Assembly: GCF_003334355.1 (NCBI RefSeq)
Contig: NZ_QOWP01000014.1
DNA: 64,000 nucleotides
Strand: one strand, 5' to 3'
Source: Escherichia coli
GTDB lineage: Bacteria; Pseudomonadota; Gammaproteobacteria; Enterobacterales; Enterobacteriaceae
Shown: positions 2,993 to 39,160 of the stretch, piece by piece
Position numbering within the stretch: the stretch's first letter is position 1
Layout: every line of letters starts with the position of its first letter
Position numbers and translations under genes: made by a program
Notes under the pieces: model-generated
Databases searched by the model: none
Told to the model about the DNA's origin: nothing
What the model saw: only the letters and a program-made list of their open reading frames with translations

Positions 2993-3015
2993 CATTTGTC
3001 TGATGCCGCACGTAG

Positions 3016-3211
3016 GCCTGATAAGACGCGGGCAGCGTCGCATCAGGCATCTTGTGCAAATGTCGGATGCGGCGTGAACGCCTTATCTGACCTACAAAAA
3101 CAAATTTATCAATGAGTTATAAATCCCTGTAGGCCTGATAAGACGCGCCAGCGTCGCATCAGGCATCGTGTGCGAATGTCAGATGCGGCGAAAACGCCTT
3201 ATCTGACATAC
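3016..3211. repeat. REP/BIME cluster of four REP copies in alternating orientation
   Basis: Copies of gcctgataagacgcg..cagcgtcgcatcaggc and gatgcggcg.aacgccttatctgac at 3016-3048, 3065-3095, 3133-3164 and 3182-3211. Confidence 0.85.
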
Positions 3212-3611: not shown

Positions 3612-3635
3612 AAAAAAGGCGCAGAATCCTGCGCC
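3612..3635 (-). terminator. Intrinsic terminator-like hairpin downstream of secA
   Basis: Minus-strand stem ggcgcag/ctgcgcc followed by a U-tract, immediately before the mutT start. Confidence 0.5.
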
Positions 3636-3656
3636 TTTTACTTTAACAGTTAGCTT

Positions 3657-6362
3657 TTATTGCAGGCGGCCATGGCACTGCTTGTATTTTTTACCAGAAC
3701 CGCACGGGCAAGGATCGTTACGTCCTACTTTGCGCTCTCCAGTTTGCGCCGCCAGTGCAGCTGCGGCTGCAGAGTCGTCATCCTGATGGCTAAGCTGCTG
3801 CATTTGCGCTAAACGCTCGGCTTCCATACGACGCTGTTGTTCCAGCTCCTCAACCTCTTCAGGCATACGTACCTGGACTTTGCTCAACGTGCTGATAACT
3901 TCATATTTTAACGACTCCAGCATCGCTGCAAACATGGAGAACGATTCACGTTTGTATTCCTGCTTCGGATCTTTCTGTGCGTAGCCACGCAGGTGGATAC
4001 CCTGACGCAGATAGTCCATCGCTGCCAGGTGCTCTTTCCACAGGGAGTCAAGCGTTTGCAGCATGACGCCTTTCTCGAAGTGACGCATCATCTCAGCACC
4101 AACCACTTCTTCTTTACGCTGATACACTTCGATGGACTGCGCCAGAATTCGCTCACGCAGCGTCTCTTCATGCAGTTCTGGTTCTTTATCCAGCCACTCG
4201 GCAATTGGCAAATCGAGGTCGAAATCGTTCTTCAGACGTTCCTGCAGCCCCGGAATATCCCACATTTCTTCCAGCGACTGTGGTGGAATGTAGGCATCAA
4301 TGGTCGCTTTGAACACATCTTCACGAATGCTGTTAATGGTTTCGCTCACATCGCTGACATCCAACAGTTCGTTACGCTGGGAGTAAATGGCGCGACGCTG
4401 ATCGTTAGCCACGTCATCATATTCCAGCAGTTGCTTACGAATGTCGAAGTTACGGCTTTCAACTTTACGCTGGGCGTTGGCAATCGCTTTAGTCACCCAC
4501 GGGTGTTCAATGGCTTCGCCTGGCTTCATACCCAGTTTACGCATCATGCCGGATACTCGGTCGGAAGCAAAAATACGCATCAGCGCATCTTCCATCGACA
4601 GGTAGAAACGGGAAGAACCAGCATCCCCCTGACGACCAGAACGACCGCGCAACTGGTTATCGATACGACGGGATTCGTGACGCTCGGTACCGATGATATG
4701 CAGGCCACCTGCTTCCAGTACCGCATCGTGACGTACCTGCCAGTCGGCTTTAATTTTTTCAATTTGCTCTGCGGTCGGATTTTCCAGCGCGGCAACTTCT
4801 GCCTGCCAGCTACCACCGAGCACAATATCTGTACCACGACCCGCCATATTGGTCGCGATAGTCACCGCAGCCGGATAACCTGCCTGAGCAACAATCGCCG
4901 CTTCGTTGGCGTGGAATTTGGCGTTCAGGACGTTGTGCTTAATACCGGCTTTGGTCAGTTCGTTTGACACCAGCTCCGATTTTTCGATGGAGATAGTACC
5001 CACCAGCACCGGCTGGCCTTTCGCAGTACGTTCTTTGATATCTTCAATGATCGCCTGAATTTTTTCCGCTTCAGTCATGTAGACCAGGTCCGGCAGATCT
5101 TTACGAATCATTGGACGGTTGGTCGGAACAACGACGGTATCCAGCTTGTAGATTGAGCTAAATTCGAAAGCTTCGGTATCAGCAGTACCGGTCATCCCCG
5201 CCAGTTTTTCATACAGACGGAAGTAGTTCTGGAAGGTGATCGAAGCCAGCGTTTGGTTTTCGTTCTGGATCTGCACACCTTCTTTCGCTTCCACAGCCTG
5301 GTGCAGACCATCGGACCAGCGACGGCCCTGCATGGTACGACCGGTGTGTTCGTCAACGATGATAACTTCACCATCTTTAACGATGTAGTCGACGTCACGG
5401 GTAAACAGCGCATGAGCGCGCAGCGCCGCCGTTACGTGGTGCATCAGCATGATGTTGGCCGGAGAGTACAGAGACTCCCCTTCATCCATGATGCCCTCTT
5501 TCACCAGCAGTTCTTCAATCAGCACCAGACCACGTTCGGTCAGGTTCACCTGGCGAGATTTTTCGTCCACCGAGAAGTGGCCTTCGCCCTGGAAGGTTTC
5601 GGAGTCTTCTTTTTCCTGACGGATCAGGTGCGGAATAATTTTATTCACGCGTTTATACATTTCCGAGCTGTCTTCTGCCGGGCCGGAAATGATCAGCGGT
5701 GTACGCGCTTCATCGATCAGGATGGAGTCCACTTCGTCCACCAGCGCATAGTGCAGTTTACGCTGTACACGTTCTTCAGGGCTGAACGCCATGTTGTCGC
5801 GCAGGTAGTCAAAGCCGTATTCGTTGTTCGTACCGTAAGTGATGTCAGCTGCGTAAGCTTCGCGCTTTGCCGGTGCTGGCATGCCCGGCAGGTTGATACC
5901 GACAGTCAGGCCAAGGAATTCAAACAGCGGACGGTTGTTTTCGGCGTCACGTTGCGCCAGGTAGTCGTTGACGGTAACTACGTGCACGCCTTTACCGGTT
6001 AGTGCGTTCAGGTAAGCAGGCAGCGTTGCGGTCAGGGTTTTACCTTCACCGGTACGCATTTCGGCGATGCAGCGTTCGTTAAGAACCATACCGCCGAGTA
6101 ACTGAACGTCGAAGTGACGCATACCAAAGACGCGCTTACTTGCCTCACGTACCACGGCGAAAGCTTCCGGGATCAGATTTTCCAGCACTTCGCCTTTTTC
6201 CAGACGTGCACGAAACTCTGCGGTTTTCCCTTTCAGTTCTTCGTCGGAGAGTTTTTCCATCTCCGGTTCCATGGCATTGATGATGTTGACCACTTTGCGC
6301 ATCCGGCGCAGGGTGCGATCGTTACGACTACCGAAAACTTTAGTTAATAATTTGATTAGCAT
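3657..6362 (-). CDS. secA: Preprotein translocase ATPase SecA
   Basis: 901-aa ORF; C-terminal zinc-binding [14 protein letters not shown]; recognised as E. coli SecA. Confidence 0.97.
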
Positions 6363-8184: not shown

Positions 8185-9336
8185 TTAATCAGCTTGCTTA
8201 CGCAGGAATGCTGGAATATCCAGATAATCCGGCTCTTTCGCAGTTTGCGGCGCATTGTCATTCACGACTTTAGCAATCGGCTTCTGCTCCTGGGTCAGCG
8301 GAGCCATCCCGTGCTGCTGGTAGCGATCCATCACTGGCTGCTGAACCTGCTTATTGGTCACCAGAGTGATTTCAGGACGTTTGTCCATGCCGATACCTGT
8401 CGCAACAACAGTTACGCGCAGCTCGTCATTCATATCCGGGTCAAGAGAAGTACCGATAACCACGGTCGCGTTGTCGGAAGCAAATGCACGGATGGTGTTA
8501 CCTACCGTTTCGAACTCATCCAGACGCAGGTCGAAGCCCGCTGTGATGTTAACCAGCACGCCGCGTGCGCCAGACAGGTCGATATCTTCCAGCAGCGGAG
8601 AAGAGATAGCCATTTCAGCAGCTTCTTCCGCACGGTCTTCACCGCTCGCCACGCCAGAACCCATCATTGCGTAGCCCATTTCAGACATTACGGTGCGTAC
8701 GTCTGCAAAGTCCACGTTCATCAAACCCGGACGAGTAATCAGTTCAGCGATACCTTGCACAGCGCCTTTCAGTACATCGTTCGCTGCGCCAAACGCATCC
8801 AGCAGGGAGATACCGCGGCCCAGAACTTTCAGCAGTTTGTCGTTCGGGATAGTGATCAGAGAGTCCACATGCTTGGACAGTTCAGTGATCCCCTGCTCCG
8901 CGAATGCCATACGCTTCTTGCCTTCAAAGTTGAAAGGCTTAGTGACGACAGCAACGGTCAGGATACCCAAATCTTTTGCCACTTCAGCGACGACTGGTGC
9001 TGCACCTGTACCGGTACCACCACCCATACCCGCAGCAATAAAGACCATGTCTGCACCTTCCAGCGCAGCACGCAATGCATCGCGATCCTCATCAGCCGCA
9101 TTGCGGCCAACTTCTGGATTAGCGCCAGCGCCCAGTCCTTTGGTGATACCGCTACCGATTTGAATCGTCTGTCCAACCGCTGTTTTACGCAGCGCTTGTG
9201 CATCGGTATTTACCGCGAAGAATTCAACACCTTCAATGCGCTCACGCACCATGTGTTCAACAGCATTACCGCCGCCGCCGCCGACGCCGATGACTTTAAT
9301 CACCGCGTCATTGGTAAGTTCCATTGGTTCAAACAT
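8185..9336 (-). CDS. ftsZ: Cell division GTPase FtsZ
   Basis: 383 aa; tubulin signature GGGTGTG; C-terminal [14 protein letters not shown]. Confidence 0.98.
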
Positions 9337-9396
9337 AGTTTCTCTCCGATTTGTGCCTGTCGCCTGAGGCCGTAATCATCGTCGGCCTCATAAAAA

Positions 9397-10659
9397 TTAA
9401 AACTCTTTTCGCAGCCAACTATTGAGTCGCTTGATCCACGAGCCAACTGATGCTGTAACACGTTTTTCTACTTCAGCTTCACCGTTAAGATGTGACTCTT
9501 TCCCATAGTGAAGCAATCCCACCGCCGTCGAATAATACGGCTCCTGAGCATAATCCGTTAAACCGGTAATGTTCAGCGGCGCGCCGATACGCACTTGCGT
9601 ATGAAACACGCGCTGAGCACAGGCTGCAAGACCTTCGATCTGCGCTGCGCCACCGGTTAATACAATGCCTGCCGCCAGGTGATGTTTAACCCCTTGTTGG
9701 CGAAGCTTTTCCTGCAACTGCAATATCTCTTCGTTGACCAGGTTGAGCAGCTCGGTATAGCGCGGCTCGATCACCTCTGCCAGGGTCTGACGTTGCAGAC
9801 TCCGCGGCGGACGACCACCTACGCTCGGCACTTCCACGCTCTCATCTTTTCCAACGATGGAACCCAGCGCACAACCGTGGCGAACTTTAATCGCTTCGGC
9901 GTCGCTTGGCGGCGTGCCAAAGGCGTAAGCGATATCACTGGTCACGACATTGCCAGCATAAGGAATTACCTTAGTGTGGCGCAATGCCCCACCGGTATAA
10001 ACGGCGATATCCATTGTACCACCACCGATATCGACGACGCAGACACCCAGTTCACGTTCATCTTCCGTCAATACCGAATAACTTGATGCCAGTCCGGCAA
10101 ATATCAGTTGGTCAACTTTCAGCCCACAACGTTCAACCGCTTTGACGATGTTTTTCGCCATATCGTTGTGACATGTGATCAGGTGCACTTTTGCCTGCAT
10201 CCGCACGCCCGAAAGTCCTACCGGATTCTTGATCCCTTCCTGATAGTCAATCGCATACTCTTGCGGGATCACATGCAGCACACGATGCTCATCGCGCACA
10301 CGCACCGATTTCGCGGTGTGGACGACGTTTTCCACATCTTCTTGCGTTACTTCTTCTTCAGAAATAGGCACCATACCAATTTCATTCTGGCAGCTGATGT
10401 GCTTACCAGAAAGCGCCAGATATACCGAAGAGATCTGACAATCTGCCATCAATTCTGCCTGGTCAATGGCGCGTTGTACGCACTTGACCACGGATTCGAG
10501 GTCGTTCACCCCGCCTTTATCCATACCACGCGACGGGCAGCTGCCCACGCCAATGATATTGACCATACCGTCGGGCAGAACTTCCCCTACTAAAGCGGCA
10601 ACCTTCGCGGTACCAATCTCCAGTCCTACTACCAGTTTTCTGTCCGTCGCCTTGATCAT
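9397..10659 (-). CDS. ftsA: Cell division protein FtsA (actin-like ATPase)
   Basis: 420 aa recognised as FtsA; start overlaps ftsQ stop. Confidence 0.97.
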
Positions 10660-30273: not shown

Positions 30274-30932
30274 ACTTAACTCCACTGTCACACTTAACTC
30301 CCTTTCCCTTATTGGAATGCAGAGAAATAATCCTCGAGAATATGATTTATCATGCATATAAAATAAGAAAAAGGAAAATGAGTAAAATTAGGAAAACATA
30401 AAGATACGGGTTCTGATAAAAACAGAATCCATTGCCGTGGAATGAGTCATTTACCACAGCATAATAATCCATAATGTTTTTGTTGCGAAAACAATCTAAT
30501 CATAACTACCGCGAATACTCAATCATCTACAAAATGGATTAAATGTGCTTATTTAATAATTAATTTATATATTTAATGCATTAATTCTTAACATTAATTG
30601 ATCAATAATATTCACCAAATCAATATCAAAAAAAATCGCAAAACATATAATTCAATACAAATCATCAGGATAGGTTTTGCAACGCGTGCATTTTGTCCCC
30701 TTTTTCCTCGTTGATTAGATGCAAAAATTTATGCTGAAATATGTCAACCGATGAAAAGCGTCGGTAGTTAAGCAGAAATTAATATCGCTTACTTTAACCA
30801 CCGCAGCACAATTAGCTAATTTTACGGATGCAGAACTCACGCTGGCGGGACGTTTTTATTGCGTCAGGGTTGACATCCGTTTTTGTATCCAGTAACTCTA
30901 AAAGCATATCGCATTCATCTGGAGCTGATTTA

Positions 30933-31019
30933 ATGACTCACATCGTTCGCTTTATCGGTCTACTACTACTAAACGCATCTTCTTTGCGCGGTAGACGAGT
31001 GAGCGGCATCCAGCATTAA
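30933..31019 (+). CDS. leuL: leu operon leader peptide
   Basis: 28-aa [28 protein letters not shown] with four consecutive CUA Leu codons. Confidence 0.9.
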
Positions 31020-31043
31020 GCCAGCACGCAGTCAAACAAAAAA

Positions 31044-31068
31044 CCCGCGCCATTGCGCGGGTTTTTTT
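31044..31068 (+). terminator. leu attenuator terminator
   Basis: Hairpin cccgcgc/gcgcggg followed by T7, between leuL and leuA. Confidence 0.85.
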
Positions 31069-33776: not shown

Positions 33777-35793
<2,017 letters not shown>

Positions 35794-35841: not shown

Positions 35842-37020
35842 TCAAATGTCTTTAACCTTTGCGGTTAAAAATAATGCGACAACAGAAATAACCGCAATTA
35901 TCCAGTAGACAGCAAAGTGCCCCCAACTTTGTGCAATTGCTCCCTGAATAACGCCAGCCAGAATTACCCCGGTAGAAATACTGTTAGTAAATAAGGTGGT
36001 AGCTGCCCCCGCTCTTCCAGGCATTAAATCCTGAAACCATAGCATCCCAATACCCGCAACAATGCCGATAAATACAGCGTTAAAAAGTTGCAGCGTCATC
36101 AACGCCAGACGGCTATGAAATAAAATCAATCCGGTGTAAAACAGTACTCCTGCCGCCACTGCTATGACCATCATTCGCCGCTTACCATAACGTTTGACAT
36201 AGTAGCCAGCCAGAATCATTGCTGGTATTTCCAGTCCAGCTGCCGTCCCCATCAGGAAACCCGCCAGTTTGTCTGGCAATCCTAACTCGCTACTGATCCA
36301 CAACGGCATATCAATAATGTACATGGTGTTGCAGGTCCACATTAACGTCGAGGCGACAAATAACATCCGTACGTTACTATCCTGCCAGCCACCTTGCATT
36401 GATAAAGCATTTTCCGACGGCAGTTCTACCCGCGCCACAGACGGAAGCATAAATGCAATCAATACCAGACTGAGTGTGAATATCCCGGCGGCAATCGAAA
36501 ACATCACCGTAAAGCCGTAATTCAACGCCAGCATAAAGGCCAACGGTGGACCGATAACCCATGCCAGAGAAAGCTGCGCACGCATCACCGAGCTAAACAT
36601 CACCACTTCTCGCGCCGAGTTATCCGCATATTCCCGCGCCAGAGCAAATAACTGTGGCATTGCCGTATTGGCCAGAGATGCCAGAAGCACACCACAGGTG
36701 ATAAGCGTCAGATAATGACGATTAAATGCAAACAATAGCGCATTGCCGATAGCCATCAAACAGCAAAATATAATCAGTTTTCGCCGATCGCCCTGACTGT
36801 CAGAACGTTTTGCCAACCAGAGGCTTACGCCGATCCCAGCAATAGCATTCACCGTATAAAAGAGTCCGATCCAGAAAGGTTGCGCGCCAACCTCACGACT
36901 CAGAAATAAGCTCAATGTAGGAGCCTGTAGCGCCCCGGCCACCCCCATCATAAAAGCGACCAGCATAAATGCCGCGTAAACACCGTTCATACGGCGAGCC
37001 ATCGTCATTATCCAGATCAT
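35842..37020 (-). CDS. setA: Sugar efflux transporter SetA (MFS)
   Basis: 392-aa polytopic membrane protein adjacent to sgrS. Confidence 0.9.
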   Translation of the reverse strand: MIWIMTMARRMNGVYAAFMLVAFMMGVAGALQAPTLSLFLSREVGAQPFWIGLFYTVNAIAGIGVSLWLAKRSDSQGDRRKLIIFCCLMAIGNALLFAFNRHYLTLITCGVLLASLANTAMPQLFALAREYADNSAREVVMFSSVMRAQLSLAWVIGPPLAFMLALNYGFTVMFSIAAGIFTLSLVLIAFMLPSVARVELPSENALSMQGGWQDSNVRMLFVASTLMWTCNTMYIIDMPLWISSELGLPDKLAGFLMGTAAGLEIPAMILAGYYVKRYGKRRMMVIAVAAGVLFYTGLILFHSRLALMTLQLFNAVFIGIVAGIGMLWFQDLMPGRAGAATTLFTNSISTGVILAGVIQGAIAQSWGHFAVYWIIAVISVVALFLTAKVKDI

Positions 37021-37047: not shown

Positions 37048-37274
37048 AAAAAAAACCAGCAGGTATAATCTGCTGGCGGGTGATTTTACACCAATACTCA
37101 GTCACACATGATGCAGGCAAGTCAACTTTCAGAATTGCGGTCATCCCACTGCATCAGTCCTTCAAGCATGGTTAATCGTTGTGGGACGCTTAACCAACGC
37201 AACCAGCACAACTTCGCTGTCGCGGTAAAATAGTGCTGATAAAACTGACGCATGGGGCACCTCCTTGCTTCATC
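37048..37274 (-). ncRNA. sgrS: SgrS small RNA (glucose-phosphate stress), dual-function, with intrinsic terminator at its 3' end
   Basis: About 227 nt, divergent from sgrR; contains the sgrT ORF; 3' hairpin ccagcagattatacctgctgg followed by U8. Confidence 0.85.
37122..37253 (-). CDS. sgrT: SgrT small protein (glucose uptake inhibitor) encoded within SgrS
   Basis: 43 aa MRQFYQHYFTATAKLCWLRWLSVPQRLTMLEGLMQWDDRNSES. Confidence 0.85.
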   Translation of the reverse strand: MRQFYQHYFTATAKLCWLRWLSVPQRLTMLEGLMQWDDRNSES

Positions 37275-37341
37275 GTTAGGAATTATTGACTTAATATAGG
37301 GAAAATAAAATTGCTGTCTTTTGCGCAGGAGTTCCCCTTTT

Positions 37342-38997
37342 ATGCCATCTGCTCGTCTGCAACAACAGTTCATCCGCCTGTGGCAATGCTGCGAGGGTAA
37401 ATCGCAGGACACAACGCTCAACGAACTGGCAGCGTTATTGAGCTGCTCGCGTCGTCATATGCGTACCCTGCTCAACACCATGCAGGATCGCGGCTGGCTG
37501 ACGTGGGAAGCGGAAGTCGGGCGCGGTAAACGCTCGCGTCTGACATTCCTCTATACCGGGCTGGCGCTTCAGCAACAGCGGGCGGAAGACCTGCTGGAGC
37601 AGGATCGTATCGACCAACTAGTACAGTTGGTTGGCGACAAAGCGACTGTGCGGCAAATGCTGGTTTCTCATCTGGGCCGCAGCTTCCGCCAGGGGCGGCA
37701 CATCCTGCGCGTGCTCTACTATCGTCCGTTGCGTAATCTGCTACCTGGCAGCGCATTGCGCCGTTCCGAAACCCATATTGCCCGGCAAATCTTCAGTTCG
37801 CTAACGCGCATAAATGAGGAAAATGGGGAACTGGAAGCAGACATCGCCCACCACTGGCAGCAAATATCACCGCTTCACTGGCGTTTCTTTTTGCGTCCAG
37901 GAGTCCATTTTCATCATGGTCGTGAACTGGAAATGGACGACGTGATCGCCTCTTTAAAACGAATCAATACGCTGCCGCTCTATTCGCATATTGCTGACAT
38001 TGTGTCGCCGACGCCCTGGACGCTGGATATCCATCTCACGCAACCGGACCGCTGGTTACCGTTATTGCTGGGGCAAGTTCCGGCGATGATCCTGCCGCGC
38101 GAATGGGAAACCCTCAGTAACTTTGCCAGCCATCCCATCGGCACCGGTCCGTATGCGGTGATCCGCAACAGCACCAATCAACTGAAAATTCAGGCATTCG
38201 ATGACTTCTTCGGTTACCGGGCATTAATCGACGAAGTTAACGTCTGGGTTCTGCCGGAAATTGCCGACGAGCCAGCCGGAGGTCTGATGCTAAAAGGTCC
38301 ACAGGGCGAGGAAAAAGAGATTGAAAGCCGCCTGGAGGAAGGTTGCTACTATTTACTATTCGACAGCCGCACCCATCGCGGGGCGAATCAGCAAGTCAGG
38401 GACTGGGTAAGCTATGTGCTTTCTCCAACTAATCTGGTCTATTTCGCTGAGGAACAGTACCAGCAACTGTGGTTCCCGGCTTATGGACTGCTCCCCCGTT
38501 GGCACCATGCCCGCACCATAAAGAGCGAAAAACCGGCTGGTCTGGAAAGCCTCACCCTAACCTTTTATCAGGATCACAGTGAGCATCGGGTGATTGCCGG
38601 GATCATGCAGCAGATTCTGGCAAGTCACCAGGTCACGCTGGAAATCAAAGAGATCGACTACGATCAGTGGCATACAGGAGAGATCGAAAGTGATATCTGG
38701 CTAAACAGCGCCAACTTTACCCTGCCGCTGGACTTCTCTGTTTTCGCACATTTATGCGAAGTGCCACTGCTACAACATTGCATTCCCATTGACTGGCAAG
38801 CCGACGCTGCTCGCTGGCGCAATGGCGAGATGAATCTGGCGAACTGGTGCCAGCAACTGGTCGCCAGCAAAGCGATGGTGCCATTATTGCACCACTGGCT
38901 GATCATTCAGGGGCAACGCAGTATGCGCGGCCTGCGCATGAACACCCTCGGCTGGTTCGATTTTAAATCAGCGTGGTTTGCGCCACCGGATCCATGA
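37342..38997 (+). CDS. sgrR: Transcriptional regulator SgrR
   Basis: 551 aa from [15 protein letters not shown]; N-terminal HTH and solute-binding-like domain. Confidence 0.93.
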
Positions 38998-39029: not shown

Positions 39030-39125
39030 GCCGTTCTCAACGGGGTGCCACGCAAACGCGTGCGCTGAGAAAATACCCGTCGAACCTGATCCGGATAACG
39101 CCGGCGAAGGGATTTGAGGCTCCTT
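39030..39125 (+). promoter_or_regulatory. sroA: TPP (THI-box) riboswitch in the thiBPQ leader (sroA)
   Basis: Conserved elements ggggtgcc, ctgaga and aacctgatccggataacgccggcgaaggga directly upstream of thiB. Confidence 0.85.
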
Positions 39126-39160
39126 CTCAAGTCCTTTGCCACTCTTTTTTGAGGTGCAAA

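Follow-up and report, generated by a model that had tools for sequence, protein, structure and literature searches.

The dual-function small RNA gene sgrS in its canonical Escherichia coli locus, with a common single-base variant adjoining the sgrT start

Introduction

The closest described system is the small RNA SgrS of E. coli K-12, whose mechanism has been laid out in a series of studies (PMC2760806, PMC4021124, PMC3901232) and whose regulatory module is known from published K-12 work as a response to glucose-phosphate stress (PMC4021124, PMC2760806). SgrS stabilizes yigL mRNA (PMC4021124), and the small protein that it encodes, SgrT, inhibits PtsG by acting via the EIIC-linker region (PMC3901232). 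In MG1655 the RNA gene (b4577, with sgrT as b4662) occupies positions 77367-77593 of NC_000913.3, and the curated record of that genome displays sgrR, sgrS, sgrT and setA in exactly the arrangement described below. A second dual-function RNA of E. coli, AzuCR, resembles SgrS in combining base pairing with mRNAs and the coding of a small protein in a single transcript (PMC8915982); the two RNAs have no sequence relationship, and the coding (nt 22-153) and pairing (approximately nt 168-187) regions are separate in SgrS whereas those of AzuCR are reported to overlap (PMC8915982).

Here we describe the counterpart of this system in a 64,000-nt stretch of E. coli DNA (hereafter, the window). We regard it as practically certain that the minus-strand element at 37274..37048 is sgrS, carried on the chromosome of an E. 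coli strain that is a close relative of K-12, with a mechanism that may be carried over from published K-12 work on the strength of near-identity. Its family, anatomy, ORF, synteny, terminator and species-wide conservation, as well as the site and strength of its complementarity to ptsG, are directly established. This is a known gene in a known place, a textbook dual-function sRNA correctly re-identified in its canonical locus, and the re-identification as such is of little significance; nothing about the locus is out of the ordinary except a common single-base variant adjoining the SgrT start, to which a substantial part of the text is devoted.

Results and Discussion

Identity and genomic context of sgrS

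The original prediction, made from the letters of the window, was of a 227-nt dual-function SgrS RNA, to be checked by a search with the Rfam SgrS covariance model, the lack of a hit being the outcome that would speak against it. This search returned a full-length match to RF00534 at 37274..37048 (minus strand) with a score of 230.7 bits (E = 7e-65; about six times the gathering score of 37), covering model positions 1-232 of 232 without truncation and with zero non-canonical consensus pairs. Taking 37274 as the transcription start and 37048 as the 3' end, the gene spans the predicted 227 nt, and together with an SgrT ORF identical to that of K-12 (see below) the match upholds the assignment. 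The interval first proposed for the element, 37048-37342, does contain the RNA gene and reaches too far, as it also takes in the 67-bp sgrS-sgrR intergenic region (37275..37341) and the first A of the sgrR ATG (37342). No strand had been given for the element at that stage; the RNA is encoded on the minus strand. Its predicted folding energy of -78.4 kcal/mol compares with -61.4 +/- 4.5 kcal/mol for dinucleotide-preserving shuffles (z = -3.8), none of the 200 shuffles folding as well.

In a side-by-side comparison with K-12 MG1655, 226 of the 227 nt of sgrS are identical. The two strains share the length of the RNA, the SgrT sequence, the seed, both 3' hairpins and the eight-U tail, as well as the distances to sgrR (67 bp) and setA (27 nt), and they differ by a G at nt 13 of the K-12 RNA and by one intergenic C/T difference at -51 (window 37325). 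The 3.6-kb locus is 99.28% identical to MG1655 75400-79000, and the whole window is collinear with K-12 from 114640 to 50000 except for one replaced segment. A chance resemblance or a decayed, non-functional gene, for which no support was found at the window's sgrS, has a negligible probability and is already refuted by the E-value obtained across the full RF00534 model, by the intact state of ORF, seed and terminator, and by 99.6% identity to an experimentally studied K-12 gene; nothing counts against the identification as SgrS.

On one side of the RNA gene, 67 bp upstream and in divergent orientation, lies sgrR (37342..38997, plus strand), a predicted transcriptional activator of 551 aa that matches the NCBIfam equivalog model NF010149, "HTH-type transcriptional regulator SgrR", at 1126.9 bits (cut-off 476) and occupies the position of K-12 b0069. 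On the other side, on the same strand as sgrS and with its start codon 27 nt downstream of the sgrS 3' end, lies setA (35842..37020, minus strand; 392 aa), whose product matches TIGR00899, "sugar efflux transporter", at 601 bits (cut-off 522.3), and which is annotated at the same place in K-12 and in strain 120899. The predicted placement between setA and sgrR, divergent from the latter, thus agrees with the NCBIfam assignments of both flanking genes. Beyond setA follows leuD (35188..35793), so that sgrS is placed between sgrR and leuD in the gene order of K-12.

Read 5' to 3' on the minus strand, the locus consists of the 67-bp spacer (37341..37275), GAUGAAGCAAGGAGGUGCCCC, the AUG at 37253 and a 43-codon ORF with a UGA ending at 37122, followed by an unstructured stretch with GUGUGACUGAGUAUUGGUGU, a small hairpin, the terminator hairpin and eight U extending to 37048. 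As an observation on annotation practice, the PGAP-annotated genomes matched here (NZ_CP025916.1 and other RefSeq records) list the sgrT CDS and no sgrS ncRNA feature, yet they do annotate the neighboring TPP riboswitch; among the records compared, an sgrS ncRNA feature is present only in the curated K-12 record.

The divergent control region

In the 67-bp region between sgrS and sgrR (37275..37341), a likely sgrS -10 element, AATAAT, was read by eye from the sequence at 37287..37282 (-13..-8), and a good -35 for sgrS is absent from the region. The consensus promoter scan found no promoter at the correct distance from the sgrS start; a -35/-10-like pair that it reported on the correct strand at 37320..37293 was rejected as the sgrS promoter, as it ends 19 nt before the start. 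The -10 element and the activation sequences of sgrS have been reported to be conserved (PMC2760817). In our comparison, the control region is identical at 67 of 67 positions to that of the setA-less strain UCPROB-002 and varies at two columns when six E. coli alleles are compared, and this conservation is the support that the present analysis offers for induction under glucose-phosphate stress, which would be SgrR-dependent.

The 3' domain and pairing with ptsG

The original prediction had ended the RNA in a 3' hairpin and U8, and both were recovered: a Rho-independent terminator at 37048..37077 (minus strand) combines a stem-loop at 37077..37055 with eight U at 37055..37048. The hairpin, GCCAGCAG-AUUAUAC-CUGCUGGU with CUGCUGG(U) as its 3' arm, was scored by the terminator scan as a stem of 8 pairs, of which 5 are G-C, closing a loop of 7 nt, in agreement with the Rfam consensus hairpin. 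Just upstream of it, SgrS nt 183-196 (37079..37092, minus strand) form a small hairpin, GGUG-UAAAAU-CACC, which is seen in both the minimum-free-energy and the centroid folds. The terminator is presumed to be the Hfq-binding module, Hfq binding itself being taken from the literature (PMC4021124).

The base-pairing region, which according to the original prediction should be sought near the 3' end, is indeed located there, at SgrS nt 161-188 (37087..37114, minus strand). It was delimited by sliding 28-nt SgrS windows against ptsG positions -45..+21, with the K-12 gene as a stand-in for a ptsG that lies outside the window; since 5413 of 5425 E. coli genomes carry this stretch with 99% identity or more, the K-12 sequence is a safe substitute. 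By far the lowest duplex energy, -28.5 kcal/mol, was obtained for nt 161-188, most other SgrS windows giving -5 to -16 kcal/mol, and none of 200 shuffled ptsG targets reached this value (mean -20.1, minimum -27.5). In the duplex core, CUGAGUAU and GGUG(U) pair with the AGGAG region of ptsG, i.e., with its Shine-Dalgarno region. This position is consistent with the core pairing described in the literature and with the effect of G176C and G178C, two mutations that abolish ptsG regulation (PMC2760806). The sliding windows replaced an unrestricted folding of the whole SgrS against ptsG -110..+40, whose result was meaningless, with very large loops and with 431 of 500 shuffles at least as good. Applied to manX and manY, the sliding windows singled out nt 153-184 of SgrS and, on the mRNAs, the target positions, both where expected; in this crude duplex test the published sites did not stand above the shuffled controls, 16 of 100 (manX) and 61 of 100 (manY) shuffles reaching them.

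A sigma-70-like match, TTTACA-16 nt-CATGAT (9/12), was observed on the plus strand at 37085-37112, antisense within the sgrS seed and directed toward sgrR; it is weak and perhaps due to chance.

Combining these features with the published work on K-12 and Salmonella, and given the 226/227 nt identity, a mechanism can be proposed for the window strain. Accumulating sugar phosphates would lead the divergently encoded SgrR to activate the sgrS promoter, and the resulting 227-nt RNA would bind Hfq via its 3' hairpins and U tail. A single-stranded stretch at approximately nt 168-187 would then pair with the ribosome-binding site of ptsG mRNA, and also with manXYZ and other targets, blocking translation and causing RNase E-dependent decay of the ptsG and manXYZ mRNAs. 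The 5' half of the RNA would be translated to the 43-residue SgrT, expected to act as a direct inhibitor of the existing PtsG transporter protein. SgrR induction, Hfq dependence, SgrT translation and the physiological role are all likely to follow the K-12 pattern, by analogy with that near-identical system.

Distribution of sgrS and its two haplotypes

The 322-base segment that begins with the sgrR start codon and stops just short of that of setA has a single match in 5400 of the 5426 complete E. coli genomes. The other 26 genomes are without an sgrS match, and 3 matches fall on records labeled as plasmids.

Two sgrS haplotypes are found in the species: in one (the window and K-12) the gene is followed by setA, and in the other (O157 Sakai, UCPROB-002, C1 and HS-02) it runs straight into leuD. 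About 2159 of the 5400 genomes fall into a class of 90-95% identity; the three genomes of this class that were inspected (UCPROB-002, C1 and HS-02) and a fourth that shares its 3' sequence (O157 Sakai) all lack setA. In both haplotypes the RNA is 227 nt long and folds into two 3' hairpins. The setA-less form (O157:H7 Sakai, CFT073-like B2 strains, UCPROB-002) has the A13 Shine-Dalgarno, the promoter region and the length of the window form. It differs in having its own spacer, its own hairpin loops, a tail of six U (eight in the window), an SgrT C-terminus of EELMQWEGSHSDY against EGLMQWDDRNSES in the window, and a small hairpin, UGGUG-UUAAU-CGCCA, that is unlike the window's in sequence. As a separate feature of this neighborhood, O157:H7 Sakai carries a type III secretion system effector-like gene, espY2, between thiB and sgrR, where the window and K-12 have only the TPP riboswitch/SroA.

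A comparison of the window with UCPROB-002 revealed a sharp but selective divergence from nt 132 on. The first 131 nt of SgrS are nearly unchanged (130/131 identical), and beyond them the spacer (16/30), the loop and 3' arm of the small hairpin (5/11) and the terminator loop (2/7) have diverged, whereas the seed block at nt 162-186 (25/25) and the terminator arms (15/15) are fully identical. The two haplotypes thereby act as a natural mutagenesis experiment, in which a diverged 3' end has kept nothing unaltered except the seed and the terminator stems, as would be expected if constraint on the 3' domain falls on these elements. The abruptness of the change inside the gene at about nt 132 (window 37048-37143) suggests that an old recombination event had its breakpoint here.

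These haplotypes also bear on a different reading of the locus, namely as a 5' leader, for the most part, of a longer transcript that extends into setA and serves chiefly to bring SetA expression under SgrR control through terminator read-through. Only 27 nt separate the U tract from the setA start, both being on one strand, and no promoter-like site was found between the two. Reportedly, sgrS and setA were found to be co-transcribed by Sun and Vanderpool in 2011. We nevertheless consider this reading very improbable as an account of the locus: it is compatible with an sRNA function and provides no replacement for it, a strong terminator (8 bp, then eight U) stands in the way, and approximately 40% of all E. 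coli genomes have no setA and nonetheless retain sgrS at 227 nt, its seed and terminator arms unchanged, which indicates that the RNA is maintained independently of setA. A review adds in its favor that SgrR activates setA during stress (PMC4021124), and on that basis setA expression in the window strain probably depends on SgrR as well, alongside sgrS in its preferred role as a regulatory RNA.

SgrT and the nt 13 variant

The sgrT CDS lies at 37122..37253 (minus strand; SgrS nt 22-153) and comprises 43 codons and a stop, as originally predicted, with its ATG at 37253..37251. Its translation, MRQFYQHYFTATAKLCWLRWLSVPQRLTMLEGLMQWDDRNSES, is identical to K-12 SgrT and matches the Pfam family SgrT (PF15894) over residues 3-37 (E = 3.5e-13), no match being returned for SgrT by the NCBIfam models; in genomes with an identical sequence, the RefSeq annotation of this position reads "glucose uptake inhibitor SgrT". 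Inhibition of PtsG (EIICB-Glc) is known for the sequence-identical K-12 protein (PMC3901232, PMC2760806) and would be expected of the window SgrT. Upstream of the intact ATG, SgrS nt 9-15 (37260..37266, minus strand) form the Shine-Dalgarno sequence AAGGAGG.

This element contains the sole difference from K-12 inside the RNA: the alignment has A at nt 13 (window 37262) where K-12 has G. In K-12, an inverted repeat, GGGGGTGCCCC, located between the sgrT Shine-Dalgarno and the start codon, inhibits sgrT translation according to the genetic evidence of Wadler and Vanderpool, and explains an output of SgrT much lower than in Salmonella (PMC2760806). The window counterpart of this sequence is GGAGGTGCCCC. 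The four-pair hairpin has a predicted energy of -0.8 kcal/mol in the window form GGAGGUGCCCC (A13) vs. -4.5 kcal/mol in the K-12 form GGGGGUGCCCC (G13), and the first 30 nt fold at -6.7 vs. -12.4 kcal/mol, respectively. At the same time, A13 yields the consensus Shine-Dalgarno AAGGAGG, with a duplex energy with the 16S anti-Shine-Dalgarno of -15.1 kcal/mol compared with -14.2 kcal/mol for G13. When either allele is folded in silico at full length, a long-range helix that is part of the Rfam model continues to pair the start codon; in the fold of the window allele the unpaired probability of the start-codon A, U and G is 0.00-0.19, and the Shine-Dalgarno is partly paired. Given this pairing of the start codon in both folds, the net effect of A13 on translation is an inference, not a result, and the amount of SgrT made is uncertain.

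A13 is the majority allele in E. coli, and the G13 of K-12, the form used in nearly all experiments, is the minority. Among complete genomes, an 80-mer around the sgrT start (-28..+52) is found in the unchanged window form, with A, in 3348 (at least 62%) and in the K-12 form, with G, in 1419 (about 26%); the remaining 633 differ somewhere within the 80-mer and include the O157 and C1 alleles, which carry A13. A non-exhaustive literature search found no paper that discusses the nt 13 polymorphism. That the position matters, most natural E. coli making substantially more SgrT than K-12 does, is a possibility that we put forward tentatively, leaning slightly against it; if true, the main reliance on base pairing that has been concluded for E. 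coli would be peculiar to K-12. The presence in the window of the common A13 instead of the hairpin-forming G13 is the only mildly non-trivial point of the locus and, like the comparison of the two haplotypes, may be of interest to those working on SgrS.

Conversely, the window RNA may be a riboregulator only, with an sgrT ORF that is intact and yields too little SgrT to matter, as reported for the K-12 allele. The native K-12 allele gave undetectable SgrT, and rescue needed base pairing (PMC2760806), and the predicted pairing of the start codon and part of the Shine-Dalgarno in the window allele points the same way, as does the loss of sgrT in some lineages, by an ATG to ATT change of the start codon in O157 Sakai, as published (PMC2760817, PMC13293527), and by a frameshift in HS-02. 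Against this reading, the window lacks the G that completes the inhibitory hairpin (the energies given above apply to both the hairpin and the first 30 nt) and has the consensus Shine-Dalgarno, and residues 1-36 of SgrT are nearly unchanged between the haplotypes, which says little alone because the DNA there is 130/131 identical. On balance we consider a purely riboregulatory window RNA unlikely and continue to view the gene as dual-function.

Other features of the window

The one segment that interrupts collinearity with K-12 lies at window 54954-55070, where K-12 58178-59686 (yabP/yabQ, about 1.5 kb) is absent and 117 bp are present instead, the rest being collinear at approximately 99.3% identity; the 117-bp replacement holds a match to the REP-type naRNA4 at 54977-55055. 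Further Rfam matches were ordinary and fell at the positions expected from K-12. These are the leu operon leader at 30919-31068 (plus strand), the TPP riboswitch at 39031-39130 (plus strand) upstream of thiB, which is SroA in K-12, STnc40 at 3612-3681 (minus strand) over the secA 3' end and the secA-mutT spacer, and the REP-derived naRNA4 copies at 3015-3208 (minus strand; mutT-yacG spacer) and 47966-48031 (plus strand; araD-araA spacer). A match to Rfam PssrA ("Plasmid-encoded Shigella sRNA A"; 105.5 bits) at 9328-9417 (minus strand) covers the 3' end of the chromosomal ftsA together with the leader and start codon of ftsZ (ATGTTTGAACCAATGGAACTT...), a junction across which K-12 annotates the antisense RNA StfZ; since the match is this ftsA-ftsZ junction, the family name is misleading for the locus.
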